In this document: positions 5,183 to 27,447 of the stretch, one piece after another | How the letters are laid out: every line of letters starts with the position of its first letter | Numbering within the stretch: the first letter of the stretch is position 1 | Source of the DNA: Candidatus Baldrarchaeum yapensis | Lineage (GTDB): Archaea; Asgardarchaeota; Baldrarchaeia; Baldrarchaeales; Baldrarchaeaceae | Assembly (NCBI GenBank): GCA_016840465.1 | Contig: JAEOSH010000003.1 | Location: 60,001-92,000 of the forward strand | Direction of reading: 5' to 3' | DNA length: 32,000 bases | Position numbers and translations under genes: made by a program | The notes under the pieces: model-generated | Databases searched by the model: none | What the model saw: the letters and a program-made list of their open reading frames with translations, nothing else | Told to the model about the DNA's origin: nothing

Positions 5183-5197
5183 CGAAAAGCTTAAACG
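5183..5197 (+). promoter_or_regulatory. Candidate BRE+TATA promoter of the hydrogenase membrane-arm operon
   Basis: cgaaaag-cttaaac in the intergenic gap. It would place the transcription start downstream of the ORF-track ATG at 5201. Confidence 0.45.
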
Positions 5198-5248
5198 CCT
5201 ATGTTATCTAAAAACGACCGCCGAGAAAGAATAATGGGGAGCACACCA

Positions 5249-5494
5249 ATGTACGAACTGTTACATATAACACTGTTAGTGGCGGCAATAATTTTCGCAC
5301 TGCTATCTATCGAGGCAAAGAGGTTGCATCGCGCGGCAATGGCTTTTTGCATTTTCAGTGTGATACTTGGAATAATTTTCTACATGCTAGCAGCTCCATA
5401 CGTCGCTGTGGCTCAACTGGTAATCTATGCGGGTGCGGTGACCGTTCTCCTGCTGGTTGTAATAAGTTTGACTAGGGGTGGGTGGGAAGAATGA
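5249..5494 (+). CDS. NuoJ N-half / MbhD-like small membrane subunit
   Basis: Three hydrophobic segments and APYVAVAQLVIYAGAVTVLLL (NuoJ-like YAGA motif). Start chosen at ATG 5249 (alternative 5234). Confidence 0.75.
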   Translation: MYELLHITLLVAAIIFALLSIEAKRLHRAAMAFCIFSVILGIIFYMLAAPYVAVAQLVIYAGAVTVLLLVVISLTRGGWEE

Positions 5495-5763
5495 AGATAA
5501 GCGCAACTGGGGCGTTCTTCACGATAGTGTTCCTCATAGTTGTACTATGGACACTACTAATGGTAAAACCCGTATTAGAGCCCGGAGCTTTCCTTGCACT
5601 TCCGCATTTCGTTAAAAGCACAGAAATCTCGGCGATAGTCCAAGATACAAGTATGCTACTGTGGAACGAGAGAGGATTGGATGTTCTGGCGCAGGCAGCA
5701 ATGTTACTAGCAACCGCCGCCGGAGTATCCGCTTTGTTTAGAAGAAAGGAAGTTAGAGAGTAG
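5491..5763 (+). CDS. MbhE / MnhB-N-terminal-like small membrane subunit (NuoJ C-half equivalent)
   Basis: LWNERGLDVLAQAAMLLATAAGVSALFR resembles the MnhB/MbhE 'RGFDTLGE' helix. ATGA overlap at 5491-5494. Confidence 0.68.
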   Translation: MKISATGAFFTIVFLIVVLWTLLMVKPVLEPGAFLALPHFVKSTEISAIVQDTSMLLWNERGLDVLAQAAMLLATAAGVSALFRRKEVRE

Positions 5764-5776
5764 TGGAGGTGGTTAG

Positions 5777-6097
5777 ATGGCCATAGATTTATTCTCTTGG
5801 TATATTGGAACCGTAGTAGTACTGTATTCAATAGGCCTCTACTGCCTAGCATCTAAGAGAAATCTGGTGAAGATGGTCATAGCAATAGAAATACTGCTGG
5901 CTGCGGCAAACCTGAACTTCATCGTGATGAGCTACTTCATGAGAACAGGATACGTACACACACTGGCTCATGCCATAGTCATAATCTCGATGGCAATCGG
6001 CGCATGTGTGGCCGCAATAGCCCTTTCGCTTGTTATGAACGCGTATAGGCATTATAAGACTCTGGATACCCGTAAGATGAGCAGACTCAGATGGTGA
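5777..6097 (+). CDS. nuoK: NuoK / MnhC / MbhG-like subunit
   Basis: GLYCLASKRNLVKMVIAIEILLAAANLNF and the C-terminal TLDTRKMSRLRW; three TM helices. Confidence 0.88.
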   Translation: MAIDLFSWYIGTVVVLYSIGLYCLASKRNLVKMVIAIEILLAAANLNFIVMSYFMRTGYVHTLAHAIVIISMAIGACVAAIALSLVMNAYRHYKTLDTRKMSRLRW

Positions 6098-6111
6098 GGG
6101 GTGGTCGGGAG

Positions 6112-8133
6112 ATGTTACCGTACGCCCCTTGGTTGTGCTGGTTAATTCCACTCGGATTTGCAGTACTCATACCGCTGGCGGATAAAATTCACCCAAGAGT
6201 AAGAGATGGACTTGCAATACTCGGATCGTTCTTAGCGATGGTGTTTGCTGCCTCTATGATACCGGATGTGTTCGCAGGAAAAGTAACCATTTGGCCGGAT
6301 GGAAAAGTCGTAGGCGAAATACCATATGGCCAATCAGTTTCTTGGATCAATGCGACCGTCTATGTGAATGGAAATGAAACCAGAATAACACTTGGCGCGG
6401 GAGTTCTGGTCGATCCATTGAGTGTGTTCATGGCAAACATTGTTGGAATAATAGGGTTCCTCATAATGGTCTATAGCCTCGGATACATGGCTGGAGAGCC
6501 AGATATGCGACGATACTGGTTCTGGATGTCGACGTTCATAGGCTCCATGATCCTCCTAGTGATGGCTGATAACCTAATACAGATGTTCGTCGGATGGGAG
6601 TTAGTAGGTCTATGCAGCTGGCAGTTGATCGCTTTCTGGTTCAAGGCAACAACGCCCAGCCCAGTGCCCGACTTTAAGACCGAAGGCGAATACAATGCAC
6701 ATTGTGGAATGAAAGCATGGATAATGACAAGAGCTGGTGACATATGCCTCCTAATAGCAATTGCAGCAATTGGTTGGGCACAATTAAAGGCCGGTCAGCC
6801 GTTAACATTCAAGTTCATGGACCTTCAGGAATCTACTGGCTGGCTGAGGGTACTAGCAGACGTGGGATTGCTTGTACCTATTAGTGTGTTGATGTTTGGA
6901 GGACCAGTGGGTAAGAGTGCACAATTCCCGTTACACGAGTGGCTACCTGAGGCTATGGCGGGTCCCACAACCGTTAGTGCACTGATACATGCCGCCACGA
7001 TGGTTAAGGCTGGAGTATACCTAGTGGCAAGAATGGTACAAGTGTTCTACCTTGCCGGAGAAAGTGCCGGTATGTTGGTTGCACTCAAGCCGCTCTTCAT
7101 AACCGTCGCGTGGATAGGTTGCTTCACGGCATTTCTGGCCGCAACACAGGCAATGGTTTCTATGGAGCTTAAGAAAGTCCTCGCATACTCGACAATAAGC
7201 CAAATAGGGTATATGATGCTGGGTCTTGGTGCTGGCGCGTTGCTACTGATACCAGCCCATGGTTATGTTGCCGGAACATTCCATCTCATGTCTCATGCTG
7301 TCTTTAAGGCATTACTCTTCCTCTGTGCAGGATCGGTACTTCATGCGACCGAGACAAAGTACATGTATGAAATGGGCGGCCTTAAGGAGGATATGCCTAT
7401 AACCTACTGGACAATGGTTATAGGTGCGGCCTCTCTTGCCGCAGTTCCCGGACTGGCAGGATTCTTCAGCAAAGAACTAATACTTGAAATATTATGGAAG
7501 GAAGGACAACTTGCGCTCTTCACTCTCGCGACGGTCACCGCCGCATTGACCGCATTCTACAGCTTCAGAATGATAGGACTTACTTTCCACGGACCGAAGA
7601 GCGAGTACATAAAGAAGAGAGAGGAGGAAGGAAAACACGTCCACGAGGCTCCTCCAGTCATGTGGGTACCATTGGTGATACTTGCCGTAGCATCGATAGT
7701 CCTAGGATGGCTGGGTCCGTACTACGAGGCCTTTGCAACGAGCGGCAGATTCTGGGTAGCTCATGAGCTTGGTTCCGAAGTAACGCTCGAGAAGTATGCT
7801 CACTATTTGACAGAGGTCTTCGCAACACCAACTGCGGCCCTCTCGCTACTCATGCTAGTGATCGGAATAGTTCCCGCGTACTACATTTACATAAAGCGTA
7901 AGATCGATCCTGCCGAACTAGTAAGTAAGAACGTCGTACTAAGAGCGCTTTACACGTTCTTGTACAACAGATGGTACATCAATCCGTTCTACTACAAGGT
8001 GTTCCTTAATGGAACTCAGGCATTCTCCCAGAGATTCCGAAAGTTGCAGACAGGGATACTCAATGTCAACGTTATCCTGATGCTCATAGGATTTGTGGCC
8101 TTCATTGCGTATCTGGTGTTTTACCTCCTGTGA
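6112..8133 (+). CDS. nuoL: NuoL/MrpA-like antiporter subunit with a C-terminal lateral helix
   Basis: VDPLS, FVGWELVGLCSW, GKSAQFPLHEWLPEAMAGPTTVSALIHAATMVKAGVY, KKVLAYSTISQIGYM, HAVFKALLFL, GFFSKE, LQTG. Start at ATG 6112 after a GGGGTGG SD. Confidence 0.93.
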   Translation: MLPYAPWLCWLIPLGFAVLIPLADKIHPRVRDGLAILGSFLAMVFAASMIPDVFAGKVTIWPDGKVVGEIPYGQSVSWINATVYVNGNETRITLGAGVLVDPLSVFMANIVGIIGFLIMVYSLGYMAGEPDMRRYWFWMSTFIGSMILLVMADNLIQMFVGWELVGLCSWQLIAFWFKATTPSPVPDFKTEGEYNAHCGMKAWIMTRAGDICLLIAIAAIGWAQLKAGQPLTFKFMDLQESTGWLRVLADVGLLVPISVLMFGGPVGKSAQFPLHEWLPEAMAGPTTVSALIHAATMVKAGVYLVARMVQVFYLAGESAGMLVALKPLFITVAWIGCFTAFLAATQAMVSMELKKVLAYSTISQIGYMMLGLGAGALLLIPAHGYVAGTFHLMSHAVFKALLFLCAGSVLHATETKYMYEMGGLKEDMPITYWTMVIGAASLAAVPGLAGFFSKELILEILWKEGQLALFTLATVTAALTAFYSFRMIGLTFHGPKSEYIKKREEEGKHVHEAPPVMWVPLVILAVASIVLGWLGPYYEAFATSGRFWVAHELGSEVTLEKYAHYLTEVFATPTAALSLLMLVIGIVPAYYIYIKRKIDPAELVSKNVVLRALYTFLYNRWYINPFYYKVFLNGTQAFSQRFRKLQTGILNVNVILMLIGFVAFIAYLVFYLL

Positions 8134-8144
8134 GGTGATTTGTC

Positions 8145-9668
8145 ATGTGGGGTCAAATAGCTGGCAAATATTTGCCGGCGGCTCCCATTATGGTACCAGT
8201 GGCGTTTGCGATTCTGGTATTCATAGTAGGGTATTTTGCCGAGGAAACTCGTGCTAGAAAGGTAGTAGACTGGCTTGCAACACTAGGAATGTTCTGCACT
8301 CTTGCGATCGCGATCAAAATTCTATACAAGGTGGTGTTCGGGGGATTTGTGCTCCAGTTCACGTACCCAATCGCAACTCTTTCCATGCTCGGAACGGGCT
8401 TAAAGGTAGATGCTCTCAGCGCATTCATGGCAGTTATATTCTCCTCAATAGGTTTCGCCGCATCTCTTTACAGCGTGAGATACATGGAACACGACACAGG
8501 TCTGACACAGTACTATGTGCTACTGCTACTCCTAGTAGCATCGCTGAACGGCGTAGCATACGCTGCTGACCTGTTTACACTGTTCGTGTTCTATGAGATG
8601 ATGGGCATATCCTCATATTCGCTGGTTGCCTTTAGAAAACACCAGTGGGAACCTGTCGAGGCAGCAATGAAGTACCTCTTCATGGCAGCAATTGGAAGCA
8701 CGGCTGTCCTCTTAGCAATGTCCATGCTCTATGGACTCACGGGAACGTTAAACTTCGAGGGGATAGCCAATGCCCTTAAGAACGCGGAGGCACCAACGGG
8801 TTACTTATACCTAGTAATTGCTCTACTGATAGGAGGATTTGGAGTAAAGGCGGCAATTGTGCCTATGCACTCATGGCTGATCGACGCACACCCTGCCGCA
8901 CCGACAAGCATAAGTGCAATGCTGTCAGGAGTTGTGATAAAGGGCGGAGTATACGCACTGGTCAGAACGCTATTTATGTTCTTCCCAGTCACGGTCTACC
9001 ATTGGGACTGGATGCTCGCGGTAATAGGCGTCGTCACGATGACGGTCGCAAACATAATCGCCCTCGTGCAGGAGGATATCAAGAGACTACTGGCGTACTC
9101 CAGTATATACAACATAGGCCTGATAATGCTGGGCGTATCAATAGGACACGTGAGCGTCCTTGGACTCACGGGTGCCATGTTCCATGTGCTGAACCACGCA
9201 ATCATGAAAGCACTCGCTTTCTTATGTGCAGGGTGCTTCCTTCACGTTGTAGGCACTAGGATGCTCTCTGATCTTAAGGGAGTTGCGAGAAGAATGCCAA
9301 TAACTGGAACATGCTTCGGAATAAGCCTACTGGCTCTGATGGGAGTTCCGCCGCTGAACGGGTTCTGGTCAAAGTTCTGGATAATACTCGCAGTGTTCCT
9401 ACTACCAGACCCCGTGTACGGTGGAATCCTTGGAATGCTCGCGCTAATCAACGTGCTCCTGGCGACGGGCTATTATGCGAAGGTTCTAAGGATAGTGTGG
9501 ATGGATCCGGAGTCCGAAAAAGTCAAGGAGGCGAAAGAGGCACCACCCGAGATGCTAATCGCACTGATAATACTGACACTGGCGATACTCGTGATAGGAG
9601 TATATCCGCAACCGTTCTTCGAAATCTCAGAAAAGGCAGCAGAAAGCGTTATAGGAGTACTCGGCTAA
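8145..9668 (+). CDS. MrpD/MbhH/NuoN-type antiporter subunit
   Basis: FVFYEMM, VKAAIVPMHSWLIDAHPAAPTSISAMLSG, KRLLAYSSI, NHAIMKALAF, PPLNGFWSK. Confidence 0.9.
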   Translation: MWGQIAGKYLPAAPIMVPVAFAILVFIVGYFAEETRARKVVDWLATLGMFCTLAIAIKILYKVVFGGFVLQFTYPIATLSMLGTGLKVDALSAFMAVIFSSIGFAASLYSVRYMEHDTGLTQYYVLLLLLVASLNGVAYAADLFTLFVFYEMMGISSYSLVAFRKHQWEPVEAAMKYLFMAAIGSTAVLLAMSMLYGLTGTLNFEGIANALKNAEAPTGYLYLVIALLIGGFGVKAAIVPMHSWLIDAHPAAPTSISAMLSGVVIKGGVYALVRTLFMFFPVTVYHWDWMLAVIGVVTMTVANIIALVQEDIKRLLAYSSIYNIGLIMLGVSIGHVSVLGLTGAMFHVLNHAIMKALAFLCAGCFLHVVGTRMLSDLKGVARRMPITGTCFGISLLALMGVPPLNGFWSKFWIILAVFLLPDPVYGGILGMLALINVLLATGYYAKVLRIVWMDPESEKVKEAKEAPPEMLIALIILTLAILVIGVYPQPFFEISEKAAESVIGVLG

Positions 9669-9700: not shown

Positions 9701-10273
9701 TTATTCTTTCTGCTTTTTATTTTGTGCAAAGAATCTTTTTGAAATGACGTCAAGAGCCCTTTTGACAAACTCCTTTTTGCCAGAAATCCTAATAGTATTT
9801 TCACTTTCTGCCTCAATCATCGCTCCCGTCTTTTTTTCAATACCCTTAAGCTCGTCGAAACTAGCTGCTCTCGGCAGTACTATCCTCACAAAGTCGACGT
9901 CTTTATCTCGTGGAATTCCCGGTATAAATGTCCCACCAAGTTGTGGTAGTGGTACGCGGAATTCCCCGCTCTTGGCCTTCCTTAAAAGCTCCTTCCATTT
10001 ATTAACGTAGTCTTCTCCAAGAACCGTAGATGCATGTTCAAAGAGAATCTTCCTTGCACTATCTAAGAGCATATCAATATCTGCAATGAATGCCTCCTCC
10101 GTGGCTTTACCCCTCGCGAGATGAAGTTGCCAATGAGAAATTAAAAGACGAGAGTGGCGAAGATCTGCATTCACCTGTAGTGATGGTGGAACTCCCTTTG
10201 AGGTAAGATCTCCCAGCATCTTATTCAAAACAGTCCATATGGAGTATCTTATTTCAAGGTCCCTCTGAGACAA
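9701..10273 (-). CDS. Conserved archaeal protein, DUF2096-like
   Basis: N-terminal WTVLNKMLGDL, central FIPGIPR..DFVRI and C-terminal IRISGKKEFVKRAL resemble DUF2096 as recalled. TTG start with an AAGGTGA SD overlapping the hdrB stop. Confidence 0.55.
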   Translation of the reverse strand: MSQRDLEIRYSIWTVLNKMLGDLTSKGVPPSLQVNADLRHSRLLISHWQLHLARGKATEEAFIADIDMLLDSARKILFEHASTVLGEDYVNKWKELLRKAKSGEFRVPLPQLGGTFIPGIPRDKDVDFVRIVLPRAASFDELKGIEKKTGAMIEAESENTIRISGKKEFVKRALDVISKRFFAQNKKQKE

Positions 10274-10282
10274 GGTATCACC

Positions 10283-11173
10283 TTAGAGACCGATTTTTCT
10301 CAATAGAGGTCTCACGGGTATAATATTGTACTGAAGACCTAATACATGTGGCGATGCACCAAGTGCCAACATTATCAACTGGGTTATAAACACAACCGGA
10401 AGTCCTAACTTCACTCCCATACGGTCCTCTATTTCCTTCTGTCCCCTATCGAATTGCAGGTGGCAGAACACGCAAGGTGTGGTCAGGCAATCGGCGCCTG
10501 CTCTCATCATGTTCTGAACTTTTTCCCTCGTCATGTCTAAACTCACATCTATCGATCCTGCTCTCACCCCGCCACCCGCTCCACAGCACATAAGCTTATC
10601 CCTGTAATCTATACTTATGGCGTTCGTGGTTTCGATAATCCTGTCAAGGATCGTTGGTCGCTCGGGATGCTCATGCCGCCTAACCTCTCTGGGCTTTAAG
10701 AAGTGGCAACCATAATGAGCGGCCACTTTCAAGCCGCTGAGATCTCTTTCTATCTCGCTCCTTATTCTATTCAGCCCTATGTCATGCTCTATCACTTCAA
10801 TTACATGCTTGACCTCTATGGTCCCCTTAAACTCTTTGTCGATGTTCTTTAGGATTTCATTAACCCACTCCCTGAGTTCCTTGTTCTCCTTTAAAAGATG
10901 ATTTGCCTCCTGCAAACTTCCATAGCAGCCGTTACAACATGTTACTATGTCAGCGCCTAGACTCTCGGCAATGCACAGGTTTCTTGCAGCTATAACGATC
11001 CAAGTGTAGAGATCAAAGGATCCAAACACTCCGGGTGCTGGGCAGCAGGAGGCTCCCTTCATATCTAGAAGTTCTATGCCATATCTTGTCATAAGGTATC
11101 TTGTCGAGGCCTCAACGCCCGGGTACCTGTTGGGCATTATGCATCCGAGGAAAAACGCATATTTCTTCGCCAT
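10283..11173 (-). CDS. hdrB: Heterodisulfide reductase subunit B (canonical methanogen type)
   Basis: FFLGCIMPNRYPGVE, CCPAPG, CNGCYGSL, HYGCHFLKP, CCGAGGG and PCVFCHLQFDRGQ give two complete CCG domains. Confidence 0.96.
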   Translation of the reverse strand: MAKKYAFFLGCIMPNRYPGVEASTRYLMTRYGIELLDMKGASCCPAPGVFGSFDLYTWIVIAARNLCIAESLGADIVTCCNGCYGSLQEANHLLKENKELREWVNEILKNIDKEFKGTIEVKHVIEVIEHDIGLNRIRSEIERDLSGLKVAAHYGCHFLKPREVRRHEHPERPTILDRIIETTNAISIDYRDKLMCCGAGGGVRAGSIDVSLDMTREKVQNMMRAGADCLTTPCVFCHLQFDRGQKEIEDRMGVKLGLPVVFITQLIMLALGASPHVLGLQYNIIPVRPLLRKIGL

Positions 11174-11734
11174 TTAACCACTCTCCTGATAACCAACCAT
11201 TTGATCGAATTTCATAATTTTTATCAACTTTCTGACTTCATCCAGCGCCTCGGGATAAGAATGAACCGTGGGTGGCAATTCACTTAAACCTAAAGCCTTT
11301 CTGATCTCTTTAAACTCGTCGGTGATCGGAACTGCGTGACCAAATCTTATAAGAAGCCTTGCAACTCGTTTGTGTTGCTCTTTCATCCTGCCGCTTTTTG
11401 CAGCAATGTTTCTGATCACTCTGATGATGTCCGTAGTTCTGACGCCGCGCGGACACCTCTCATAACACGTATAACAGGTGGTGCAGTACCAGAGCTCTTC
11501 ACTTGAAAGCACCTCATCCTTGAGCCCAAGAAGAGCCTTGCGCATAACTAGACGCGTCCTATAAGCAGTTCTTCTGCCAGATGGGCAACTTCCACTGCAC
11601 GTTCCGCACTGGAAACATGCAGTGATGGTTTCCATATGTTCTCTTCCGAAAATCTTGGACCCGTACTCTATTATCTCCTCAACAAACTTAGGATCGGTTT
11701 TTTCGAGTTGTATGACCTGTTCGGAAGCACTCAT
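11174..11734 (-). CDS. hdrC: Heterodisulfide reductase subunit C
   Basis: CFQCGTCSGSCPSG, CTTCYTCYERCPRGV and GHAVP. ATG at 11734 preceded by GGGTG; the stop abuts the hdrB ATG. Confidence 0.95.
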   Translation of the reverse strand: MSASEQVIQLEKTDPKFVEEIIEYGSKIFGREHMETITACFQCGTCSGSCPSGRRTAYRTRLVMRKALLGLKDEVLSSEELWYCTTCYTCYERCPRGVRTTDIIRVIRNIAAKSGRMKEQHKRVARLLIRFGHAVPITDEFKEIRKALGLSELPPTVHSYPEALDEVRKLIKIMKFDQMVGYQESG

Positions 11735-11854
11735 CGCGGACACCCATTACGGATCAGCCGGGAATTACATACCCGGTGTCCTTTATTTGTTCTTTCCCAA
11801 GAAAAGAGGTATCCTCCAGTTATTCTGGTTATTACGTAAAAAATGTATTGGGGG

Positions 11855-12949
11855 TCAATGCGCATTATACGCGGTCAAAATCGCGTTAACAAAGTCTTCA
11901 GGTGAGGTGCCGCTAGTTCTTATTTTTTTACTCTCAAAGACTTCCACAAGTGCGGACTTTAGGAGGTTCTTATCTAAGCGTAGACCCTTTAATGAGTTTT
12001 CCAAATCGGCTATTGCATCTCGAGGCTCGAGCCAAAAGTCCCCGCTTATCAAAATATCCCTGATCACTTCATCCTCCATCTCGAAAGTCACCCTGATTAA
12101 ACCACCAGGGGACTTATAGACCCCCTCAACGATGTAAGTATCGCCTGCCACCTTAACTTTCCTTGTAGCAAGATTCGGATGTCTCTCCTCGTGTATAAAT
12201 AGCCACTCATGCGAAAGATACTGCTCTCTGAGTTCCCGTATGATTTCCTCCTCTCTTCTCGTCAATTCACCTCTTTCAAGCTTAACATTGAGGTACTTCT
12301 CAAAATTCTTCACTAACAAGTCAACAACTCTGCTTCTATCCGGTACGTACCCTAACTCTCTCCTCAATGAGGTGACCCTTTCCTTCAGACTTTTTGCAAA
12401 CTTGTCCCTGAACTTCTCACTGGGTACCCTGAGAACCTTAACCATTATATCGTAATTAAAGTCGAGAATTATGTTGCCGACGAAGACAAATGCTTTCTCT
12501 ATTTCCCCACCGCCGTTTCCACTGATCTTCCTACCGTTAACCTCTATGTCATTAACGGGTCTAAAGTACGCGTCGACCCCTAACTCCCTATACGTTTGCA
12601 CAGGAGCCCTTAAGAAGTACTCAAATCTACCAACGGTGTCCGCGGGGACATCTGACCAGTCCTGGGGAATCACCAGTTGATAAAATATCTGATTTTCGTC
12701 TAAGTATACGGCCCCGCCGCCAATAACTCTCCTCACTATTGGTATTCCCATTTTCCTGCAAAATTCTATGTCTACCTCCTTTGAAACCTCCTGAAAATAC
12801 CCGCAGGAAACCAGAGGTGATGCCGGCCAGTCTATGAAAAGTGTCGGTGGAATGTCCCCCTCGCTTAGAGCAATCGCCGCTGCATGCCATATTACCTGCG
12901 TCAAAACGGGATCTATCGGCCCAAGAAAAACGTATCGCAGCTTCTTCAT
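11855..12949 (-). CDS. lplA: Lipoate/octanoate:protein ligase with C-terminal accessory domain (LplAB, sLpl(AB)-like)
   Basis: GYFQEVSKEVD, RRVIGGGAVYLDENQIFYQL, VNDIEVNGRKISGNG and the C-terminal KSPGGLI...ISGDF domain. Confidence 0.92.
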   Translation of the reverse strand: MKKLRYVFLGPIDPVLTQVIWHAAAIALSEGDIPPTLFIDWPASPLVSCGYFQEVSKEVDIEFCRKMGIPIVRRVIGGGAVYLDENQIFYQLVIPQDWSDVPADTVGRFEYFLRAPVQTYRELGVDAYFRPVNDIEVNGRKISGNGGGEIEKAFVFVGNIILDFNYDIMVKVLRVPSEKFRDKFAKSLKERVTSLRRELGYVPDRSRVVDLLVKNFEKYLNVKLERGELTRREEEIIRELREQYLSHEWLFIHEERHPNLATRKVKVAGDTYIVEGVYKSPGGLIRVTFEMEDEVIRDILISGDFWLEPRDAIADLENSLKGLRLDKNLLKSALVEVFESKKIRTSGTSPEDFVNAILTAYNAH

Positions 12950-13392
12950 CTCAACTCTCCCTTCTTAAGCTTCTCCTCGTCCTCCTTGATCCACTTCTCT
13001 ATGTTCTCGACACCATGAATTAGATTTTTCAAGTCCTCCTCTAAGTTCGTCGGTTCTATTACCGCGATCCACCCCTCACCGTACGGATCCTCATTTAATA
13101 ACTCGACTCTTTTCTCCTTAACGAGTTTTTCATTCACCTCTATGATCTTCCCGCTGACTGGCGAATACAGAGTTCCGCGCCATTTCCCACTCTCAACAAC
13201 CGCAAGAGGCTTTCCTTGCTCGACATGCCGCCCAACGGGGAGTACTCGTATTGCTATTGCTCGCCCTAAGGCCTGTTGCCCCCAGTCATCTATTCCCACA
13301 CGAACCTTCCCATTTTCAATACGTGCCCACGTGTGCCTTGGATGATAGTAGAGATCCTCGGGGAATTCATATTTTCCGAGTATTTTTACCAA
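12946..13392 (-). CDS. gcvH: GcvH-like lipoyl carrier protein (ESGKW type)
   Basis: FPEDLYY..HTWARIE...VRVGIDD, lipoyl-Lys motif VESGKW, SPVSGKIIEVN and DPYGEGWI. TTG at 13392 follows a GGAGG SD (ORF track uses GTG 13407). ATGA overlap with lplA. Confidence 0.92.
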   Translation of the reverse strand: MVKILGKYEFPEDLYYHPRHTWARIENGKVRVGIDDWGQQALGRAIAIRVLPVGRHVEQGKPLAVVESGKWRGTLYSPVSGKIIEVNEKLVKEKRVELLNEDPYGEGWIAVIEPTNLEEDLKNLIHGVENIEKWIKEDEEKLKKGELR

Positions 13393-13438
13393 TATGCCGA
13401 CCTCCACAATTTCTGAAGAGAAGTCACCGCATTGAGAA

Positions 13439-13444
13439 TATAAA
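13439..13444 (-). promoter_or_regulatory. Candidate TATA box for the gcvH-lplA(-hdrCB) transcript
   Basis: TTTATA on the - strand about 47 nt upstream of the TTG start. Confidence 0.4.
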
Positions 13445-13628
13445 TGATGTACAGAGACTTGTTAGGGTGTATCATCCCAATATGCTTTTTCCAAAATAAA
13501 ACGCAAAGTTGCTGGAAAAATCGAAATTTTGTCCCTGTGGGTTTATTGTTTAAACCCTTTTAATTGACGTATGATTTATATTGGGTACCTTTCGAATAGT
13601 TAGCGACTCGCGGAACGAGGGAAGACGG

Positions 13629-13952
13629 ATGAGCGACGCGCTAACTGTCATAATAGCGTTTGTGGTCTGCCTTCTGACTTCAGCGTTCCTTTACGCGCTC
13701 GGACGGAAATTGGCACCACGGGGCAAAGAGAATGACGAGAAAGTAACACCATACGCATGCGGAGAAGACTACCCGGTCGAATACATACAGTATTACATCC
13801 ACTGGTTCTACTACGCGGTCTTCTTCACAATACTTGAGGTTGCAGCGATACTCATAGCGTTCTCGCTGTTCGCACCAAGCGTGGCGCTCGTGGTGGTAAT
13901 AATATACACGATTATGGCCCTAATTGCCGCGTTTATGGCACCGCGTGAGTAG
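13629..13952 (+). CDS. nuoA: NuoA-like subunit
   Basis: K..PYACGED loop, YYAVFFTILEV and three TMs. ATG at 13629 after a GAGGG SD. Confidence 0.85.
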   Translation: MSDALTVIIAFVVCLLTSAFLYALGRKLAPRGKENDEKVTPYACGEDYPVEYIQYYIHWFYYAVFFTILEVAAILIAFSLFAPSVALVVVIIYTIMALIAAFMAPRE

Positions 13953-13962
13953 GTGATGTGAT

Positions 13963-14400
13963 ATGGGAATACTAGATCGTATGGTCAAGTGGGCGCGTAT
14001 AAGATCACCCTGGATACTCCACTTCAACACGGGAGGATGCAACGCGTGTGACATAGAGGTACTAGCAGTATTAACTCCAAGATTTGATGTTGAGAGGTTC
14101 GGAATACTCCTAAAGGGAAGCCCCAGACATGCTGATGTGCTCGTAGTAACAGGTCCCGTGACGAGACAAGTTGCTAAGCGGCTAAAAAGAATTTATTATC
14201 AAATGCCTGAGCCTAAATTCGTAATGGCAGTAGGTGCATGCGCAGTCAGCGGTGGGGTCTTCAGGGGGGCTTATAACGTACATATGGGACTCGACCAAGT
14301 ACTTCCGGTCGATGTATACGTTCCCGGATGCCCACCAAAGCCGGAGGCCATCATTGATGGTGTTGTTAAGTTGTTAAAGAAGTTGGAGGAGGGTGGTTAG
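13963..14400 (+). CDS. Group 4 [NiFe]-hydrogenase small subunit (NuoB-like)
   Basis: GGCNACDIE, SPRHADVLVVTG, GACAVSGG and VPGCPPKPEAI supply four Cys for a [4Fe-4S] cluster. Confidence 0.93.
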   Translation: MGILDRMVKWARIRSPWILHFNTGGCNACDIEVLAVLTPRFDVERFGILLKGSPRHADVLVVTGPVTRQVAKRLKRIYYQMPEPKFVMAVGACAVSGGVFRGAYNVHMGLDQVLPVDVYVPGCPPKPEAIIDGVVKLLKKLEEGG

Positions 14401-14401
14401 T

Positions 14402-14899
14402 GTGAGCGAACTAAAAGCGGAACAGGAACTCGTCGAGGATGTAAAGAAACAGCTCGGTGACAAAATTGTGGACACCAAGATCCAGAGGGCAAAGAGGGTG
14501 TATATAAGGGTAAAGGCTGGAGATCACCGTGACGTTATAAAGTACCTCAAGGAGAAATGGGACGCATATCACGTATCGACAATCACTGGCGTTGACTTGG
14601 GCGAAAATATAGAACTTCTTTATCACCTGTTCGCCTATCGGGGAAATGTTACGGTCACCGTGCGAACCGAGGTTCCAAAGTCGGATCCCAAGATACAGAC
14701 AATTGTTGACATAATTCCGGGCGCAACGCTCTATGAGAGAGAAGTTCATGACTTGCTGGGTGTGGTTTTTGAGGGACATCCTGAGCTTGAACGTTTAATA
14801 TTACCGGATGACTGGCCAGAGGGGGTATATCCCCTAAGAAAAGAATACAAACTCGAAGTTGAGGAAGTTGAAGAGGTTAAGGAGGAGGGTGAGGCATGA
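14402..14899 (+). CDS. NuoC/MbhK/EchD-like subunit
   Basis: HVSTITGVD, ELLYHL, YEREVHDLLGVVFEGHP.L.RLILPDDWPEGVYPLRK. GTG at 14402 after a GGAGGGTGG SD. Confidence 0.9.
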   Translation: MSELKAEQELVEDVKKQLGDKIVDTKIQRAKRVYIRVKAGDHRDVIKYLKEKWDAYHVSTITGVDLGENIELLYHLFAYRGNVTVTVRTEVPKSDPKIQTIVDIIPGATLYEREVHDLLGVVFEGHPELERLILPDDWPEGVYPLRKEYKLEVEEVEEVKEEGEA

Positions 14900-16110
14900 G
14901 CGAGGAGAGGATGTTTAGAATTCCCGTTGGTCCTCAGCATCCCGCTCTTAAAGAACCGATAAACTTCACATTCATAGTTGATGGAGAAAGGGTCGTGGAT
15001 GTCAAGCCACGGATAGGATACAATCACCGCGGAATAGAGAAACTCATGGAATCGAAGACGTACATTCAAGGGCTTTATCTCATCGAGAGAATTTGCGGAA
15101 TATGCTCGGCGGCGCATCAGGGATGTTACGCTCAGAACATAGAGGAGGCCGCAGGCATCGAGGCACCCCCACGTGGTGTATACCTCAGAACGCTAATCTG
15201 GGAGTTAGAAAGAATTCACAGCCATCTCCTGTGGGTAGGTGTCGCATACCACGAGATAGGGTTTGATACGCTATTCATGTATGTATGGCGTGACAGAGAG
15301 CGGGTTATGGACATATTGGAGATGATATCGGGTAACAGGGTCAACTACGCAATGAACACCATAGGTGGAGTTCGTAGGGATGTTACTCCCGAAATTGTAG
15401 ACAATGCCCTAAAGGCCCTCGACTACTTGGAAGAGAGAACGAAGTACTACAAGAAGGTCACCGAAGAGGACGACAGCATCCTTGCAAGGACCGTCAACGT
15501 CGGAATACTGAAGACAGAAGATGCTAAGAGATTATGCGCCGTCGGCCCGACGGCAAGGGCATCAGGACTGAAGGTTGATGTGAGAAGAGACGACCCATAC
15601 GGTGCTTACGACGAGTTGGACTTCGACGTCGTAGTTTATGACACCTGCGACCTTACCGCGAGAGTACTCGTACGTATAGACGAGGTTCTCGAAAGTATAA
15701 AAATGTGCCGCCAGATTCTCCAGAACCTCCCATCTGGGCCCGTTAGAGTGAAATTCAAGAGAAAGGTTCCAGAAGGAGAGTCAATAAGCAAGGTGGAGGC
15801 CCCTCGTGGAGAGGACTTACACTATGTCAAGGCAAATGGCACTGAAAAACCGGAGAGGTACAAGGTGAGAGCACCTACACTTGCGAATATACCGTCGGTC
15901 TGCGAGATGCTAAAGGGAGGATACATTGCCGACATCCCAATAGTATTCGCTGGTATCGATCCCTGTATTGCGTGCACCGACAGGATGTTGTTCATAGATG
16001 TGAATACTGAGCGAAAGTGGATGTGGACGGAAGAGGAGTTGAGGATGTACGCGCGTAAGTGGTATAAGAAACATCTTAAGGAAGTGGTGAGGGAAAGATG
16101 GAAGTGCTAG
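14896..16110 (+). CDS. Group 4 energy-converting [NiFe]-hydrogenase large subunit (NuoD homolog)
   Basis: GPQHP and HRGIEK, plus both Ni-Fe motifs intact (L1 ERICGICSAAH, L2 IDPCIACTDR), followed by a C-terminal extension. Confidence 0.94.
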   Translation: MSEERMFRIPVGPQHPALKEPINFTFIVDGERVVDVKPRIGYNHRGIEKLMESKTYIQGLYLIERICGICSAAHQGCYAQNIEEAAGIEAPPRGVYLRTLIWELERIHSHLLWVGVAYHEIGFDTLFMYVWRDRERVMDILEMISGNRVNYAMNTIGGVRRDVTPEIVDNALKALDYLEERTKYYKKVTEEDDSILARTVNVGILKTEDAKRLCAVGPTARASGLKVDVRRDDPYGAYDELDFDVVVYDTCDLTARVLVRIDEVLESIKMCRQILQNLPSGPVRVKFKRKVPEGESISKVEAPRGEDLHYVKANGTEKPERYKVRAPTLANIPSVCEMLKGGYIADIPIVFAGIDPCIACTDRMLFIDVNTERKWMWTEEELRMYARKWYKKHLKEVVRERWKC

Positions 16111-17114
16111 AACTCATACTCCTTATATTGGCAACTGTGTTGTTCCCCGGTGTTGTGTTCTGCACGTATTACGCCCTATTTCTAGAGTGGGTTGATCGAA
16201 AGTTCTTTGCAAGGCTCCAGAACAGAGTGGGGCCTTGGATAACTGGGCCAAAAGGAATACTGCAGCCCATTGCGGATATAATAAAGTTACTCGCAAAAGA
16301 GGACATAACTCCAAATGGGGTTGATAGAGCCGGTTTCGTCGGTGCACCTTTCTTCGCATTAACCTTAGCGCTGTTCTCATTGATGTTCGTGCCAATAGCA
16401 TCAACAAGCGGAATACTCTCATTTAAAGGAGATCTGCTCATAGTGCTGTTCATATCCACGGTATTCGGCATCATAATAATATTCGCCGGGTACGTCTCTG
16501 CAAGCAGATTCTCGATAGTCGGCACTGCAAGAGCGGGGCTCCAGTTCGTGGGGTACGAAATCCCGCTCTTTGTGTCAGCAATTATTCCCGCACTTATAGC
16601 CAGGTCTCTGACATTGAAGGAAATAGTGGAGTGGCAGATTGCACATTACCCACTGATACTATGCTTCCCTGCAATGATAGCATTCGGAATCTTCATAGTA
16701 TGTTCCCTTGCGAAACTCGAAAAACTGCCGTTTGACATACCCGAAGCAGAAACGGAGATAGTTGCAGGGTGGGCAACAGAGTTCAGCGGAAAGAAGTTGG
16801 CCCTCTTTAGACTTTCAACGGACCTGAAAATGTTGCTTCTTGCCGGATTGGCGACTGCATTGTTCCTTGGTGGACCTGCACCCTGGGGCTTCACACTTCC
16901 GGCAGATCTAAATCCGTACCTTGCGGCGCTCATATACTCGATATGGTTCGTGATAAAGACAATAATCGTTGTGCTTATAATGTCCACGTTGAAAGCGGCA
17001 TTTGCAAGGTACAGGATAGATCAGGCACTTAGGGGCTTCTGGAGATATCTAACGCCCCTATCGCTTGCAATACTAATACTTACGCCTATAGTCGCCTATC
17101 ATTTCTACTGGTAG
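16098..17114 (+). CDS. NuoH/MbhM/EchB-like membrane subunit
   Basis: DRKFFARLQNRVGP, LQPIADIIKLLAKE, RAGLQFVGYE, PFDIPEAETEIVAGWATEFSG and ARYRIDQ. Confidence 0.94.
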   Translation: MEVLELILLILATVLFPGVVFCTYYALFLEWVDRKFFARLQNRVGPWITGPKGILQPIADIIKLLAKEDITPNGVDRAGFVGAPFFALTLALFSLMFVPIASTSGILSFKGDLLIVLFISTVFGIIIIFAGYVSASRFSIVGTARAGLQFVGYEIPLFVSAIIPALIARSLTLKEIVEWQIAHYPLILCFPAMIAFGIFIVCSLAKLEKLPFDIPEAETEIVAGWATEFSGKKLALFRLSTDLKMLLLAGLATALFLGGPAPWGFTLPADLNPYLAALIYSIWFVIKTIIVVLIMSTLKAAFARYRIDQALRGFWRYLTPLSLAILILTPIVAYHFYW

Positions 17115-17124
17115 GTGATGTAAG

Positions 17125-17481
17125 ATGAGATTACCCGCAAGGTTCTCACCCGAATTGCTGAGGCATGTGCCGCGCAAGCCGGCAACAGTAATGTATCCGT
17201 TTGTCCCCGTGGAAGCACCGGAGGGCTTCAGGGGAAAACATGAATTTGATATAGAGAAGTGCGTTGGATGCGGCCTGTGCGCAAGGGATTGCCCCTCAGG
17301 AGCAATAGAAATGGTTCCCGATGAGAGAACAAAGGGCAAAAAGCGTCCTGTGATCCACTTGGACAGATGCCTCTTCTGTGCCCAGTGCGAGGAGTCATGC
17401 CCAAGAGGGGCGATAAAGCTAACAAAAGTGTACGAAATGGCGGGCTACAAGAGGGAAGAAATGGTAGTCACCGCCCCCTGA
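17125..17481 (+). CDS. NuoI/MbhN-like 2x[4Fe-4S] subunit
   Basis: PATVMYP, FRGK, CVGCGLCARDCP and CLFCAQCEESCP. Confidence 0.93.
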   Translation: MRLPARFSPELLRHVPRKPATVMYPFVPVEAPEGFRGKHEFDIEKCVGCGLCARDCPSGAIEMVPDERTKGKKRPVIHLDRCLFCAQCEESCPRGAIKLTKVYEMAGYKREEMVVTAP

Positions 17482-23776: not shown

Positions 23777-25076
23777 GTTTTTTGAATTTCCCCCGCTCTA
23801 TAAGTCTTCTTATTCCTATTTTCGATATCTCGTCCTCTAGACGCTTTAACCTCTGTTGTAACTCGTCTTTGACATCTTCAGGTACACTTGGAACTTCTCG
23901 TAACTCTTCCGCTGGAATTCTCTCCTCAATTTCAATTTTCGCATACCGCTGATGCTTTGGTGTTTCACGATTGATAGTTGCATCTATTATTGCTCTTTTC
24001 CTAGACCCTGCCCACAGAGATGGAACCTCCGGATCAATAATGTTCACCGATGTTATCTCGACTTTAATTATATTTTCCGGGCATGCTCTCTCACAAGACC
24101 CGCAGAATATGCATAGACTCTCATTAACGGCTATCTTGCCTTCCCTTTCTGGGTCCTTTGGAATATACCAGCAATTTACGGGACATATGTTTATACAGGC
24201 CTTACAACCAAGCGGATCGCACTTCTCTATATGGAAAAGCTTTATCTTTCCCTCGAAGCGCTTTTTTACCTCAATGGCGTTTCTGGGACAAGTATTGGTA
24301 CACCATCCGCAGTAAATGCAGTTTTCCTCGTTTATAACCACGTCTCCCGTGATGCGTGGTATTTCTATTTCTCTTTCAACTGGTGTTATGCACTTCACCT
24401 CTATTGCCTCATCAGGACAAATCTCTGCACAGAGGCCACAAAAATCACATTTCTCCAAGTTCACACTTATTGAGGAGGCAAAAGTGAGATCTGAGGGATC
24501 CGGCTTTTTCCACTCAATTACTATTGCATCGCACAATTCTGCACAAATACCACAAAATGTGCACTTTTCTTCGTTTATTTTTATTTCACCTTCGATTTTT
24601 TCGGGCATCTTCTTATATCTTACCAGATCTTCCTTCTTTTTAAGTTGAATTCTGACCTCTATACACCTCGTTGGGCAAATAGTCTCGCAAATCCTACAAG
24701 GAATGCACTTCTCTTTATCAATTCTTATACTTCCTACAATCCTCGGATACTCTTTCAGTGTCTCGATTCTCTGACCATTTATTTCGAAAATTATCGCATT
24801 GATAGGACAGATTTCGGCACAAAGACCGCAAAACTGACATTTATCTTGATCAAAGGTTATTTTCGCAAATTTTCCATCCATTTTCCCTGTAGCTATCTGG
24901 GGTATCGGTCCAAGAGAAATAGCACCCGTTGGGCATACCTCTACACATAATCCACATCCGACACACGTGTCCGTATTGTAAATTAGCCTTTTCTTATAAT
25001 TACGCCCAATCCACGTAACTATCATTTCGTTCTCCGTGAAGTCCAATAATATTTGGGGAGAAAACTCATCCGGCAC
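23769..25076 (-). CDS. fwdF: FwdF-like polyferredoxin (8 x [4Fe-4S] motifs)
   Basis: Eight CxxCxxCxxxC motifs, one with the FwdF-typical CDPLGCKAC insertion. The GTG start overlaps the hdrA 3' end. Confidence 0.88.
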   Translation of the reverse strand: MPDEFSPQILLDFTENEMIVTWIGRNYKKRLIYNTDTCVGCGLCVEVCPTGAISLGPIPQIATGKMDGKFAKITFDQDKCQFCGLCAEICPINAIIFEINGQRIETLKEYPRIVGSIRIDKEKCIPCRICETICPTRCIEVRIQLKKKEDLVRYKKMPEKIEGEIKINEEKCTFCGICAELCDAIVIEWKKPDPSDLTFASSISVNLEKCDFCGLCAEICPDEAIEVKCITPVEREIEIPRITGDVVINEENCIYCGWCTNTCPRNAIEVKKRFEGKIKLFHIEKCDPLGCKACINICPVNCWYIPKDPEREGKIAVNESLCIFCGSCERACPENIIKVEITSVNIIDPEVPSLWAGSRKRAIIDATINRETPKHQRYAKIEIEERIPAEELREVPSVPEDVKDELQQRLKRLEDEISKIGIRRLIERGKFKKLT

Positions 25077-27447
25077 TTTTCATCACCAACTCGGAACCTA
25101 TCGGACCCAACTTCTTGAGTTCTTCAACAAACTCCCTGACTATGTTTGCGAATCTCTCTCCTTCGGATGCCGAAGTGCTTGCGATTTTCAATCTGCGTGG
25201 ATTAATCCCCACATTCTCAAGATACTTTTTGAGCGCAGAAATTCGTCTCTCGGCCTTTGAAAAACCTGTCCTGTAATGGCAATCCTGAGGATGACAACCA
25301 ACCACAAGGACTCCATCAGCTCCCGCCTTAAACGCCTCTAATATCATGAGGGGACTGACCCTTGCTGTGCACATGACCCTTATCGGTCTAATGTTGGTTG
25401 GGTATTGTATTTTTGTGGTTCCTGCGAAATCAGCAGCCGCATAACCACACCAATTGCATAAGAATGCAACTATGAGGGGGAATTCGCATTTGTTTTCCAA
25501 TGTTGCATGTATTTGGGCAATTATCTGTTGATTTGTGAAGTAAGGCATATCTAACGCGCCTGTGGGACAAGCGGCAACACAGGCGCCACATCCCAAGCAG
25601 GCACTTGAGTTTATGATAACCCCTTTCTCTTTATCGAATGTCAAAGCCCCCCAATCGCAGGCCTCCTCACAAAGCCTGCATCGCTTACATAGATCTGGAT
25701 TATACGTCGGGACGTAGGGATCCAATTCTATTTTTTCGTGTAGCACAAAGTTCGCTGCATCGAGTGCGGCAGATTTGGAGTGTGCAACCGTGTCCTGAAT
25801 GTCCTTAGGACCTTGAATTGTACCCGCAATGTAAATTCCCTGTATCATGGTCTCTGAAGGGGCAAGCTTCGGATGCCGCTCGAGGAGAAACCCATCAGAG
25901 GATTGAGAAATTCCTAGCATTCGTGCCAAGTCCTCGGTATCAGAGGGAGGAACCAGTCCCACGGACAATACCACGAGATCAGCATTTATTTCCATGATTT
26001 CCCCAGTAAGCGTGTTCTCTGCTCTAACTATGAGATCATCGCCGTTTTCATTTGCGGTGACCGAACTCGCCCTACCTCTTATTATCTTTATTCCGAAATC
26101 TCTCATTGCTTTCAGCAAGAACTCCTCATACCCCTTTCCATACGTTCGTATATCCTGGAAGAGTATGAACACCTCGGCATCAGGTATCCTTTCCTTAATG
26201 CAAATAGCCTCCTTTATGCTGGCCGTACAACAGATCCTAGAACAATAGGGGTTGCCTACGCTTTCGTCCCTACTCCCAACACACTGGATGAACACGATCC
26301 TTCTGGGTTCCTTTCCGTTCGATAACCTGACCACACGTCCGCGCGTTGGGCCACTGGGGCTGAGCAACCTTTCGAGTTCTAGTGATGTTATAACATCGGG
26401 ATACCTTCCGTAGCCGTACTCGCTCTTAAGTCGGGCATCAAAGGTTTCATAACCCGTGGCCACAATAATTGCACCAACATGAATCCTTATCCTTTCTGGC
26501 GTTTGATTGAAATCTATTGCATCGCGTTCACACGCATCTTCACAGTTTCTACAACCTATGCAATGATCTGGGTCTATCACCGCGAGCAGAGGGACTGCTT
26601 GCGGAAACGGTAGATATATTGCCTTTCTTGGCCTCAGTCCCATGTCAAACTCGTTAGGGACCTCCACAGGACATGTTTTTGAACAAATTTCTATGCATCC
26701 GACGCATTTCTCCTCATTTACGTAACGTGGTCGTTTCAGTATCTCTACCTCGAAGTCCCCCGGTCTTCCCTTAATGCTTGTTACCTCCGATAACGTTAGG
26801 ACTTTTATCATAGGATGCTCCGAAACCTCGCTCATGAGAGGGGCCAGTATGCAAATTGAGCAGTCAAGAGTCGGGAAAAGCTTGTCGAGCATAGCCATAT
26901 GCCCGCCCAGCGTCGGTTGCTTTTCGACGAGATAAACCTCAATTCCGAGACTTGCAAGGGAGAGTGCAGCCGTTATTCCAGCGACTCCTCCGCCTATTAC
27001 TAGAACTCTTTTCTTCGCACGTGCGTATCTGCGCTGTATTGGGGTTAGAAGCCTTGCCTTTTCGATTCCCATCTTTATCAGAGCAATAGCCTTGTTTGTC
27101 GCGGCGGTTGGAGAATACATGTGAGGCCAAGAGCATTGTTCACGAATATTCACAAATTCTACCAGAAACGGATTCAAACCCGCCTCTTCTGCTGCTCTTC
27201 TAAAAAGTCTCTCATGAAGCCGCGGGCTGCATGCCGCTATTACAACTTTTGATAATTTTTCCTCTGCTATTTTCCTTTTCAACTCATTAAGCCCTTCCTT
27301 GCTACATAGGTACGTGTGATCCATCACGAAAACGTTGGGGGCCCTCGCTATTTCGTTTAGAACCCGCTTGATGTCTATTACTCCGGCAATGTTCGATCCG
27401 CAATGGCATATGAAAACTCCTATTTTGTCGCTGTCCATATACTTCAT
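25066..27447 (-). CDS. hdrA: HdrA-MvhD fusion (flavin-bifurcating HdrA plus C-terminal [2Fe-2S] MvhD domain)
   Basis: GVFICHCG, CSPRLHE, NIREQCSW, GGGVAG, FPTLDCSIC, inserted and C-terminal ferredoxin pairs, IQCVGSRD and CSRICC. MvhD part: FLCNWCGY, RVMCTARV, GCHPQDCHY. Confidence 0.95.
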   Translation of the reverse strand: MKYMDSDKIGVFICHCGSNIAGVIDIKRVLNEIARAPNVFVMDHTYLCSKEGLNELKRKIAEEKLSKVVIAACSPRLHERLFRRAAEEAGLNPFLVEFVNIREQCSWPHMYSPTAATNKAIALIKMGIEKARLLTPIQRRYARAKKRVLVIGGGVAGITAALSLASLGIEVYLVEKQPTLGGHMAMLDKLFPTLDCSICILAPLMSEVSEHPMIKVLTLSEVTSIKGRPGDFEVEILKRPRYVNEEKCVGCIEICSKTCPVEVPNEFDMGLRPRKAIYLPFPQAVPLLAVIDPDHCIGCRNCEDACERDAIDFNQTPERIRIHVGAIIVATGYETFDARLKSEYGYGRYPDVITSLELERLLSPSGPTRGRVVRLSNGKEPRRIVFIQCVGSRDESVGNPYCSRICCTASIKEAICIKERIPDAEVFILFQDIRTYGKGYEEFLLKAMRDFGIKIIRGRASSVTANENGDDLIVRAENTLTGEIMEINADLVVLSVGLVPPSDTEDLARMLGISQSSDGFLLERHPKLAPSETMIQGIYIAGTIQGPKDIQDTVAHSKSAALDAANFVLHEKIELDPYVPTYNPDLCKRCRLCEEACDWGALTFDKEKGVIINSSACLGCGACVAACPTGALDMPYFTNQQIIAQIHATLENKCEFPLIVAFLCNWCGYAAADFAGTTKIQYPTNIRPIRVMCTARVSPLMILEAFKAGADGVLVVGCHPQDCHYRTGFSKAERRISALKKYLENVGINPRRLKIASTSASEGERFANIVREFVEELKKLGPIGSELVMKSAG

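Follow-up and report, generated by a model that had tools for sequence, protein, structure and literature searches.

Enzymes of the HdrABC type occur in many anaerobes that are not methanogens, among them Asgard archaea, Bathyarchaeia, sulfate reducers and acetogens. Because these organisms make no CoM-S-S-CoB, the heterodisulfide of coenzymes M and B, one may ask which disulfide their enzymes use. This question is raised by a 32,000-nucleotide stretch of DNA from the Asgard archaeon Candidatus Baldrarchaeum yapensis (contig JAEOSH010000003.1, positions 60,001 to 92,000; hereafter the window), in which genes for a GcvH-like lipoyl carrier and a lipoate:protein ligase are followed on the same strand by hdrC, hdrB and a gene for a DUF2096 protein. 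A lipoyl carrier and its ligase beside a bona fide HdrBC would provide a concrete candidate for the substrate, one that can be purified and assayed, and a preliminary description of the sequence had suggested that a protein-bound lipoamide disulfide could replace or relay CoM-S-S-CoB. We followed up this suggestion with Pfam and NCBIfam model searches of simply called open reading frames and with comparisons of gene neighborhoods across genomes and metagenomes. The carrier is of the type of LbpA, the GcvH-like protein that accompanies the Hdr-like (sHdr) complexes of sulfur oxidizers, and carriers of this kind are found near genes for proteins with CCG domains, such as HdrB, far more often than are canonical GcvH proteins. 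The reading that we consider most likely, though at no better than even odds, is that the active site of HdrB has the lipoylated carrier, instead of CoM-S-S-CoB, as its disulfide/dithiol partner.

The carrier, its ligase and the adjoining HdrBC

All five genes lie on the minus strand where the preliminary description had placed them. The carrier gene (12946..13392; Pfam GCV_H, PF01597, 1.6e-34) and the ligase gene (11855..12949; PF21948 and PF10437, LplA-B_cat and Lip_prot_lig_C) overlap in the sequence ATGA, which holds the stop codon of the former and the start codon of the latter, as had been noted. A spacer of 111 bp (11744..11854) separates the ligase gene from hdrC (11174..11743), the ATG of hdrB (10283..11173) directly follows the TAA of hdrC, and a 9-bp gap lies between hdrB and the DUF2096 gene (9701..10273). 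TTG 13392 is the most likely start of the carrier, because the resulting translation, MVKILGKYEFPEDLYY, fits the family consensus; GTG 13407 is an alternative, and hdrC could start at ATG 11734 instead of GTG 11743. Since the ligase-hdrC junction is bridged in two independent public assemblies (X3 record 3 and X4 record 5), the gene order is not an assembly chimera.

The lipoyl-lysine of the carrier is predicted to lie in VVESGKWRG, where the Lys aligns with the lipoyl Lys of PDB 1onl; ESGKW is common to 100 of the 120 best database matches of the protein, the closest named homologue of which comes from Candidatus Baldrarchaeota. The translation contains no Cys, in agreement with the earlier reading. 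The carrier scored below the gcvH equivalog TIGR00527 (94.9 bits versus a cut-off of 115.85) and only marginally above the broad subfamily model NF002270 (121 bits versus 117). In a tree of 121 rows, the canonical GcvH clade comprised 60 rows (SH-aLRT 98), including the genome's copies on contigs C1 and C86 and nearly all proteins linked to gcvT or gcvP, and the window carrier fell outside this clade, on the side of the split that holds an archaeal GKW group and the carriers of the sHdr loci L088, L095 and L116, with the deep branching on that side left unresolved. These sHdr-type loci were fetched to serve as the source of LbpA references because the matches in a PDB sequence search with the carrier were all named GcvH, with no LbpA-labelled entry among them. 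The surface of LbpA is less acidic, or more basic, than that of GcvH (Kumpel et al. 2026 preprint, 10.64898/2026.10.01.755906), and the pI of the window carrier, calculated for the whole protein and not mapped onto a surface, is 5.9 compared with 4.4 and 4.5 for the two canonical copies in the genome; the corresponding medians are 5.15 for non-canonical carriers and 4.25 for canonical GcvH. By these comparisons of sequence, the window protein is an additional paralogue of LbpA type rather than the H protein of glycine cleavage.

In the ligase, a catalytic domain is joined to a C-terminal domain that resembles LplB (LplB model NF053749, 68 bits versus 65); the protein is one of two lipoate ligases in the genome, the other being encoded on contig C12. 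Ligases encoded beside non-canonical carriers were all of the window type, whereas those in gcvTHP operons were of the C12 type, a division that mirrors the published split between sLpl(AB) and Lpl(AB). This distribution supports the assignment of the window protein, by its sequence type, to the ligases that travel with such carriers. The LipS1-type gene that had been recognized in the window was confirmed (29357..30319, plus strand; NF053742, 270 bits versus 230) and would encode one half of the LipS1/LipS2 sulfur-insertion pair. A candidate for the other half lies on contig C35 (C35:24859-25869); it is assigned by similarity only, being 35% identical to a radical SAM (rSAM) gene of the sHdr locus L116, where that gene belongs to a lipS1-lpl-rSAM run. 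LipS1/S2 are common in Asgard archaea, and a co-transfer of hdr and lipoylation genes from archaea has been suggested (Tanabe et al. 2023, PMC10332631).

HdrB, the catalytic subunit that reduces the disulfide, has two CCG domains; it matched TIGR03288 with 438 bits versus 345 and aligned over its full length with the Methanothermococcus protein PDB 5odc_B (E = 9e-119), to which it is about 64% identical as read off the alignment; the motifs CCPAPG and CCGAGGG, cited earlier as canonical for methanogens, are both present. HdrC, the subunit with two [4Fe-4S] clusters, matched TIGR03290 with 234.5 bits versus 160 and PDB 8rvu_c with E = 1e-61. Judged by these matches, HdrBC is genuinely methanogen-type. 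Other HdrB paralogues of the genome, which encodes about 18 CCG proteins, are 29-46% identical to the window HdrB. The DUF2096 protein (PF23100, DUF2096_N, and PF09869) is predicted to combine a four-helix bundle with a KH-like domain; its model has a pLDDT of 82, a fold search gave weak KH-domain matches alone (E at least 0.013) and pointed to no function, and a word-based homologue search found only the protein itself. DUF2096 genes adjoin hdrC-CCG or hdrA genes in 9 of 19 other Asgard loci (L196-L215), arguing that hdrC-hdrB-DUF2096 is a module in its own right. DUF2096 is a previously unrecognized companion of Hdr genes.

The genome (2.27 Mb, 96% complete) was also searched for the cofactors and enzymes with which an Hdr or a lipoyl carrier might be expected to work. 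Neither mcrA nor ComA was found, the alternative route to CoM and the synthesis of CoB not having been searched for, and the genome therefore has no recognized source of CoM-S-S-CoB. No 2-oxoacid dehydrogenase E2 was detected in the genome and no E3 (Lpd), the best match to TIGR01350 having 135 bits versus a cut-off of 409. That match, a 447-aa protein on contig C96 and the sole Pyr_redox_dim protein of the genome, was rejected as L protein on account of its score and its single-Cys motif of the CoADR/Nox type. Lpd-like genes were absent from all five genomes of the order and all five of family f13 but present in most other Asgard families; across Asgard archaea, the carrier and Lpd are not cleanly anticorrelated, since Lpd-like genes are absent in f1, f2 and f13 and present in f14. 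Pfam searches bore out the earlier statement that the 32 kb hold no gcvP, gcvT, gcvL or 2-oxoacid dehydrogenase genes. A complete gcvP1-gcvP2/gcvT-gcvH set lies on contig C1, and the genome has three GcvH-family genes in all (C1, C86 and the window). This gcvP1P2-T-H set coexists with the absence of E3 and E2.

Neighborhoods of LbpA-type carriers

We examined whether the association of LbpA-type carriers with CCG proteins extends beyond the window. A scan of a genome collection caught GcvH proteins of all kinds and thus had a built-in control, most canonical genes lying with gcvT/P. A CCG protein was encoded within 5 kb in 12 of 20 non-canonical carrier loci compared with 2 of 58 canonical GcvH loci (Fisher p = 2e-7, a value that overstates the evidence because the loci are related to one another), and the CCG-positive loci came from at least eight phyla. 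In a second scan, metagenome contigs were searched with the motif E[ST]GKWVGP, which yielded 23 loci flanked on each side by 3 kb or more of sequence; a CCG protein lay within 5 kb in 20 of these and within 1.2 kb in 19, a window-type ligase was present in 14, and gcvT/P or Nuo-type genes were present in none. Among the carriers of the motif-targeted sample that lack Cys and look archaeal, 8 of 15 had a CCG neighbor. Neighbors were annotated with phmmer using this genome's own proteins as references, so very divergent CCG or ligase genes could have been missed.

The Hdr partners of these carriers differ among lineages. In bacteria the partner is classical sHdr. A conserved operon of Bathyarchaeia type (L080, L195, L219 and L222) combines a narI-like cytochrome b, an HdrD-like CCG protein, a UbiA prenyltransferase, an ESGKW carrier and a ligase, and in Methanomethylicia, Terraquivivens and, more loosely, Thorarchaeota, carriers occur with GlcD-like and HdrD-like genes. 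An array on one strand of the metagenome contig Ga0209635_10007475 (L229:1-8620) reads lpl-carrier-rSAM-lpl-lipS1-hdrC-hdrB-mvhD-hdrA and so joins a complete set of lipoylation genes to an Hdr operon that is not of the sHdr kind. Of the first lpl gene in this array only the end is present, the carrier is of the Cys-less ESGKW type, the radical-SAM-like gene encodes 345 aa, and a 338-aa gene precedes the second lpl. In Candidatus Terraquivivens (L083:1-10678) and Methanomethylicia (L090:5700-11200) we also observed several GcvH-like genes, each of which neighbors the genes of a CCG protein resembling HdrD and of an FAD oxidase resembling GlcD, with lipS1 additionally present in L090.

Within Asgard archaea, the linkage was seen in a second form in the sister family f2. 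The three other genomes of the order that have the genes (G005-G007), and also contigs L077-L079, encode an orthologous carrier (59-62% identity) next to an fdh-like/hdrC/hdrB/hdrA-mvhD cluster, with 31-70 bp between the end of the carrier gene and that of hdrA. For both HdrB and HdrC of this cluster, the best matches in the present genome are the window proteins. The HdrA of the cluster best matches the HdrA-MvhD fusion of the window (793 aa; 25066..27447, minus strand; Fer4 and FlpD/MvhD domains in Pfam) by a narrow margin, and this assignment is weak because the L077 protein scored 646 bits against it and 614 against the next paralogue. The carrier was present in 6 of the 7 Asgard families with an orthologue of the window HdrB, compared with 8 of 26 others (hypergeometric p about 0.014). 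A carrier gene lay upstream of 7 of the 29 best orthologues that the ligase has in other Asgard genomes, and the 19 HdrB orthologues (55-60% identity) were encoded almost always as hdrC-hdrB, with hdrA within 1.5 kb on either side in 11. The exact five-gene order is unique to this genome among those examined; the co-oriented gcvH-lplA-hdrCB synteny, whose conservation the preliminary description had proposed as a check, was found in no other genome.

The five-gene run sits between the two halves of a group-4 [NiFe] hydrogenase/complex-I-like set, both on the plus strand. Genes A, B, C, D, H and I (13581..17481) diverge from the carrier-ligase pair across a promoter region recognized from its sequence and from promoter hexamer statistics (13393..13580), and the membrane half, consisting of J-like, K, L-like (680 aa) and N-like (507 aa) genes (5201..9668), is convergent with the DUF2096 gene; both halves were identified with Pfam. 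Hydrogenase D keeps both NiFe Cys motifs, RICGICSAAH and DPCIACTDR. In family f14 (G116, G118, G119 and G121) and on a contig named Freyarchaeota (L194), the carrier-ligase pair likewise lies between the orthologous ABCDHI and JKLN genes, with no CCG gene; the name of L194 is that of its carrier, and the contig may belong to f13, a family in which three genomes (G112-G114) have a hydrogenase B gene at a distance of 0.65-1 kb from that of the carrier. Elsewhere in the window, Pfam identified a second hdrC-hdrB pair, Fwd-like genes and a polyferredoxin. Directly after hydrogenase I is a gene of the AIR-synthase family (17624-18646, plus strand), which we considered as HypE and rejected, as it is methanogenesis marker 2 by a narrow match to TIGR03267 (365.3 bits versus 365); this match occurs in a genome without mcrA. 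It was also rejected as the counterpart of the gene interposed between ligase and hydrogenase in f14, which is SelD, the two being non-orthologous. In one f14 locus (L037:11272-12006), the selD open reading frame between ligase and hydrogenase J lacks its N-terminal part, probably owing to an in-frame Sec codon. In the Asgard genome G004, a window-type ligase gene is convergent with, and 41 bp from, an HdrD-like CCG gene (L043:9210-11502), and no carrier gene was found within the 20 kb fetched.

A lipoyl disulfide as a candidate substrate of HdrBC

The run consists of two adjoining modules, which in the most likely reading act together. In the first, an LbpA-type carrier would be translationally coupled to a dedicated Lpl(AB) ligase, and LipS1 from the window, together with the LipS2 candidate, would complete the lipoyl group. 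The second, hdrC-hdrB-DUF2096, encodes a canonical methanogen-type HdrBC and an accessory protein associated with Hdr. On this reading, HdrB would act with its two non-cubane [4Fe-4S] clusters on the dithiolane disulfide that the lipoylated carrier presents. HdrBC would reduce this disulfide to the dihydrolipoyl form or run in reverse, and an HdrA-MvhD flavoprotein, for example the product of the gene 14 kb off, would deliver the electrons by way of HdrC. Because the genome has no Mcr, no ComA route and no E3, protein-bound lipoamide may stand in for CoM-S-S-CoB, and Hdr for E3. We infer the interaction of the carrier with HdrB, the direction of electron flow and the co-expression of the two modules; a complex prediction for HdrB and the carrier gave a score of 0.00 and was counted neither for nor against.

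Several observations speak against this proposal. Neither hdrC nor hdrB adjoins any of the 29 Asgard ligase orthologues, and no ligase or carrier gene, nor a DUF2096 gene, lies within 1.5 kb of any of the 19 HdrB orthologues. In G116, which is a complete genome, 1.3 Mb separate hdrCB from the genes of carrier and ligase, and families f13, f14, f15 and f16, which have both genes, have them on different contigs or far apart. The sister-family carrier is convergent with hdrCBA and not co-transcribed with it, and other Asgard genomes have hdrC-CCG-DUF2096 as a module that stands alone. The genome is so rich in CCG proteins that chance proximity has to be reckoned with, at roughly 3% for a distance of about 1.2 kb and 9% for one of 5 kb. 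The HdrB itself is close enough to a true CoM-S-S-CoB reductase, at about 64% identity, that a small-molecule substrate would fit. The ligase-hdrC spacer contains TTTTTT at 11838-11843, 11 nt past the ligase stop, and a weak AAATAAA at 11782-11788, some 50 nt upstream of ATG 11734 of hdrC, and same-strand gaps of 100-150 bp were found in only 61 of 1150 gene pairs compared with 567 for gaps under 20 bp. Promoter hexamers of this genome resemble TTTAAA or TTTATA and are centered near -50, and the carrier has such a hexamer at that peak (TTTATA at 13439-13444, about 49 nt before TTG 13392). Because of the T6 run, the TATA-like box and the recurrence of hdrC-hdrB-DUF2096 as its own module, separate transcription of the two modules would be at least as likely as co-transcription, and transcription of lpl through hdrC would have about one chance in three.

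Much of this is also what mere juxtaposition would lead one to expect, in which the carrier and ligase have another role (a lipoylation relay or another enzyme) and a separately transcribed hdrC-hdrB-DUF2096 module reduces a low-molecular-weight disulfide. Such a coincidence, which we consider rather unlikely, would agree with the uniqueness of the gene order, the T6 run and A/T box in the gap, the independent recurrence of the hdrC-CCG-DUF2096 module and the abundance of CCG proteins in the genome, as well as with the carrier-ligase pairs without a CCG gene in f13, f14 and the Freyarchaeota-named contig and the Cys-less metagenome loci L223, L224, L226 and L230, which have none either. It does not readily explain the family-wide excess of CCG neighbors (12/20 versus 2/58, and 20/23), the second, different arrangement in which orthologous genes adjoin in the sister family, or the recurrence of the carrier with three different archaeal Hdr architectures. 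The nested position of the genes suggests instead that the carrier might serve the flanking group-4 [NiFe] hydrogenase, perhaps with HdrBC as an adaptor, in an energy-converting H2:lipoyl-protein oxidoreductase. The divergent promoter region common to carrier and hydrogenase genes, the placement of hdrCB within the same nest, and the position of the pair in f14 and L194 and near hydrogenase B in f13 all favor such a tie, as do two further loci: a second complex-I-like/group-4 hydrogenase-like cluster of this genome (C1:1-8012, L216), in which an HdrB-type CCG gene (4002-4886) lies between NuoC-like (4899-5570) and NuoD-like (2829-3989) genes and a NuoB gene is missing, and the Bathyarchaeia locus L093, in which a GcvH-like gene and three genes for HdrA come after CCG-NuoD-NuoB. 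However, a CCG gene is absent from the nests of f13, f14 and the Freyarchaeota-named contig, the sister-family carrier lies at hdrCBA with no hydrogenase nearby, and Nuo-type neighbors occurred in 0 of 23 full-context ESGKW loci outside these Asgard lineages, so that the link may be inherited synteny; we judge a function of the carrier with the hydrogenase to be improbable.

Two explanations borrowed from the known relatives of the carrier fare less well. An sHdr-like sulfur system, in which the carrier binds sulfane sulfur that an Hdr-like complex oxidizes to sulfite, or the reverse, would account for the clade side and the ESGKW motif that the carrier shares with sHdr-linked LbpAs, for the ligase-LipS1/LipS2 set and for the two HdrCB pairs and one HdrA in the window. 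Yet the two Cys that are conserved near the N and C termini of most LbpAs, with some archaeal exceptions (Cao et al. 2018, PMC6067878), are lacking; HdrB and HdrC pass the CoB-CoM equivalogs; HdrA is the long 793-aa MvhD-fused form and not the short sHdrA; no TusA, DsrE or rhodanese gene occurs in the 32 kb, the sole DsrE pair of the genome being on contig C41; and the samples with this DNA are sediment, seawater and hydrothermal-vent metagenomes, with a gene content of anaerobe type. We therefore hold an sHdr-like sulfur role to be very unlikely. A plain glycine cleavage role is suggested by the Pfam GCV_H match and the marginal pass of NF002270 and seems to us more remote still. As the preliminary description had pointed out, a full glycine cleavage system elsewhere could explain an H protein in the window, and such a system does exist, but on C1 a gcvH of their own adjoins gcvP1, gcvP2 and gcvT, the window carrier fails TIGR00527 and lies outside the canonical clade, and gcvT/P are near none of the 23 full-context ESGKWVGP loci. 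The reading of lipoamide as the HdrBC substrate is thus favored by the clade of the carrier, the type of the ligase, the CCG enrichment and the adjacency in the sister family. The original proposal is supported in part; conservation of the gene order, which it had named as a check, was not borne out.

If HdrBC does act on the lipoylated carrier, lipoyl-protein cycling without E3 in this lineage would be explained, and the sHdr-LbpA systems of sulfur oxidizers would be tied to an anaerobic archaeal ancestor, in agreement with Tanabe et al. (2023, PMC10332631); models of energy metabolism in the archaeal relatives of eukaryotes would also be affected. A wider and more tentative generalization, which we think doubtful though worth stating, is that LbpA-bound lipoate is the general physiological disulfide of HdrB or HdrD outside methanogens, used here by an HdrBC that is fed by HdrA-MvhD, possibly docked to the hydrogenase, and replaces E3, and that sHdr-LbpA is a derived branch of an older anaerobic partnership between lipoyl proteins and Hdr.

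Comparison with known systems

The methanogen HdrABC-MvhAGD complex (PDB 5ODC, 8RVU and 7BKB) shares with the window system the full-length alignment of HdrB and HdrC, all CCG and ferredoxin Cys motifs, and an HdrA-MvhD gene in the same window. It differs in that neither mcrA nor ComA was found in the present genome, where the preliminary description had proposed to look for mcr and the synthesis of CoM and CoB, and in that hdrCB is preceded by a carrier-ligase pair and followed by DUF2096. With GcvH and the L protein (E3), the common features are the fold and the lipoyl-lysine hairpin, and the proposed Hdr reaction would be E3 chemistry, the interconversion of lipoamide and dihydrolipoamide. 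The window carrier is, however, not the copy linked to glycine cleavage, and the flavin/NAD enzyme E3 is absent from this genome and the other four of its order.

DsrK with DsrC in DsrMKJOP is a precedent for a catalytic subunit with CCG domains whose substrate, a sulfur-sulfur bond, is borne by a small protein and not by a free cofactor. DsrC carries a Cys-based trisulfide, not lipoyl-lysine, and DsrMKJOP is membrane-bound and quinone-linked.

In the literature searched, LbpA was described for sulfur oxidizers alone, and none of it connected canonical HdrB or HdrD of anaerobes with carriers that resemble GcvH. The closest described system is the sHdr-LbpA-sLpl(AB)-LipS1/S2 system of sulfur-oxidizing bacteria and Sulfolobales (PMC6067878, PMC10332631). 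Unlike in that system, the window carrier has no Cys, HdrBC is methanogen-type, HdrA is long, MvhD-fused, of the bifurcating type and encoded 14 kb off, whereas sHdrA is short and without ferredoxin and MvhD domains, and the shdrC1B1AHC2B2 order is absent, sHdrH not having been looked for; there are also no TusA, DsrE or Rhd neighbors, and the host is an Asgard archaeon of anaerobe type. What the two have in common is a single-domain GcvH-like carrier outside the canonical clade that bears ESGKW and is less acidic than GcvH, an adjoining archaeal-type Lpl(AB), the LipS1/LipS2 pair and a location beside hdrC-hdrB.

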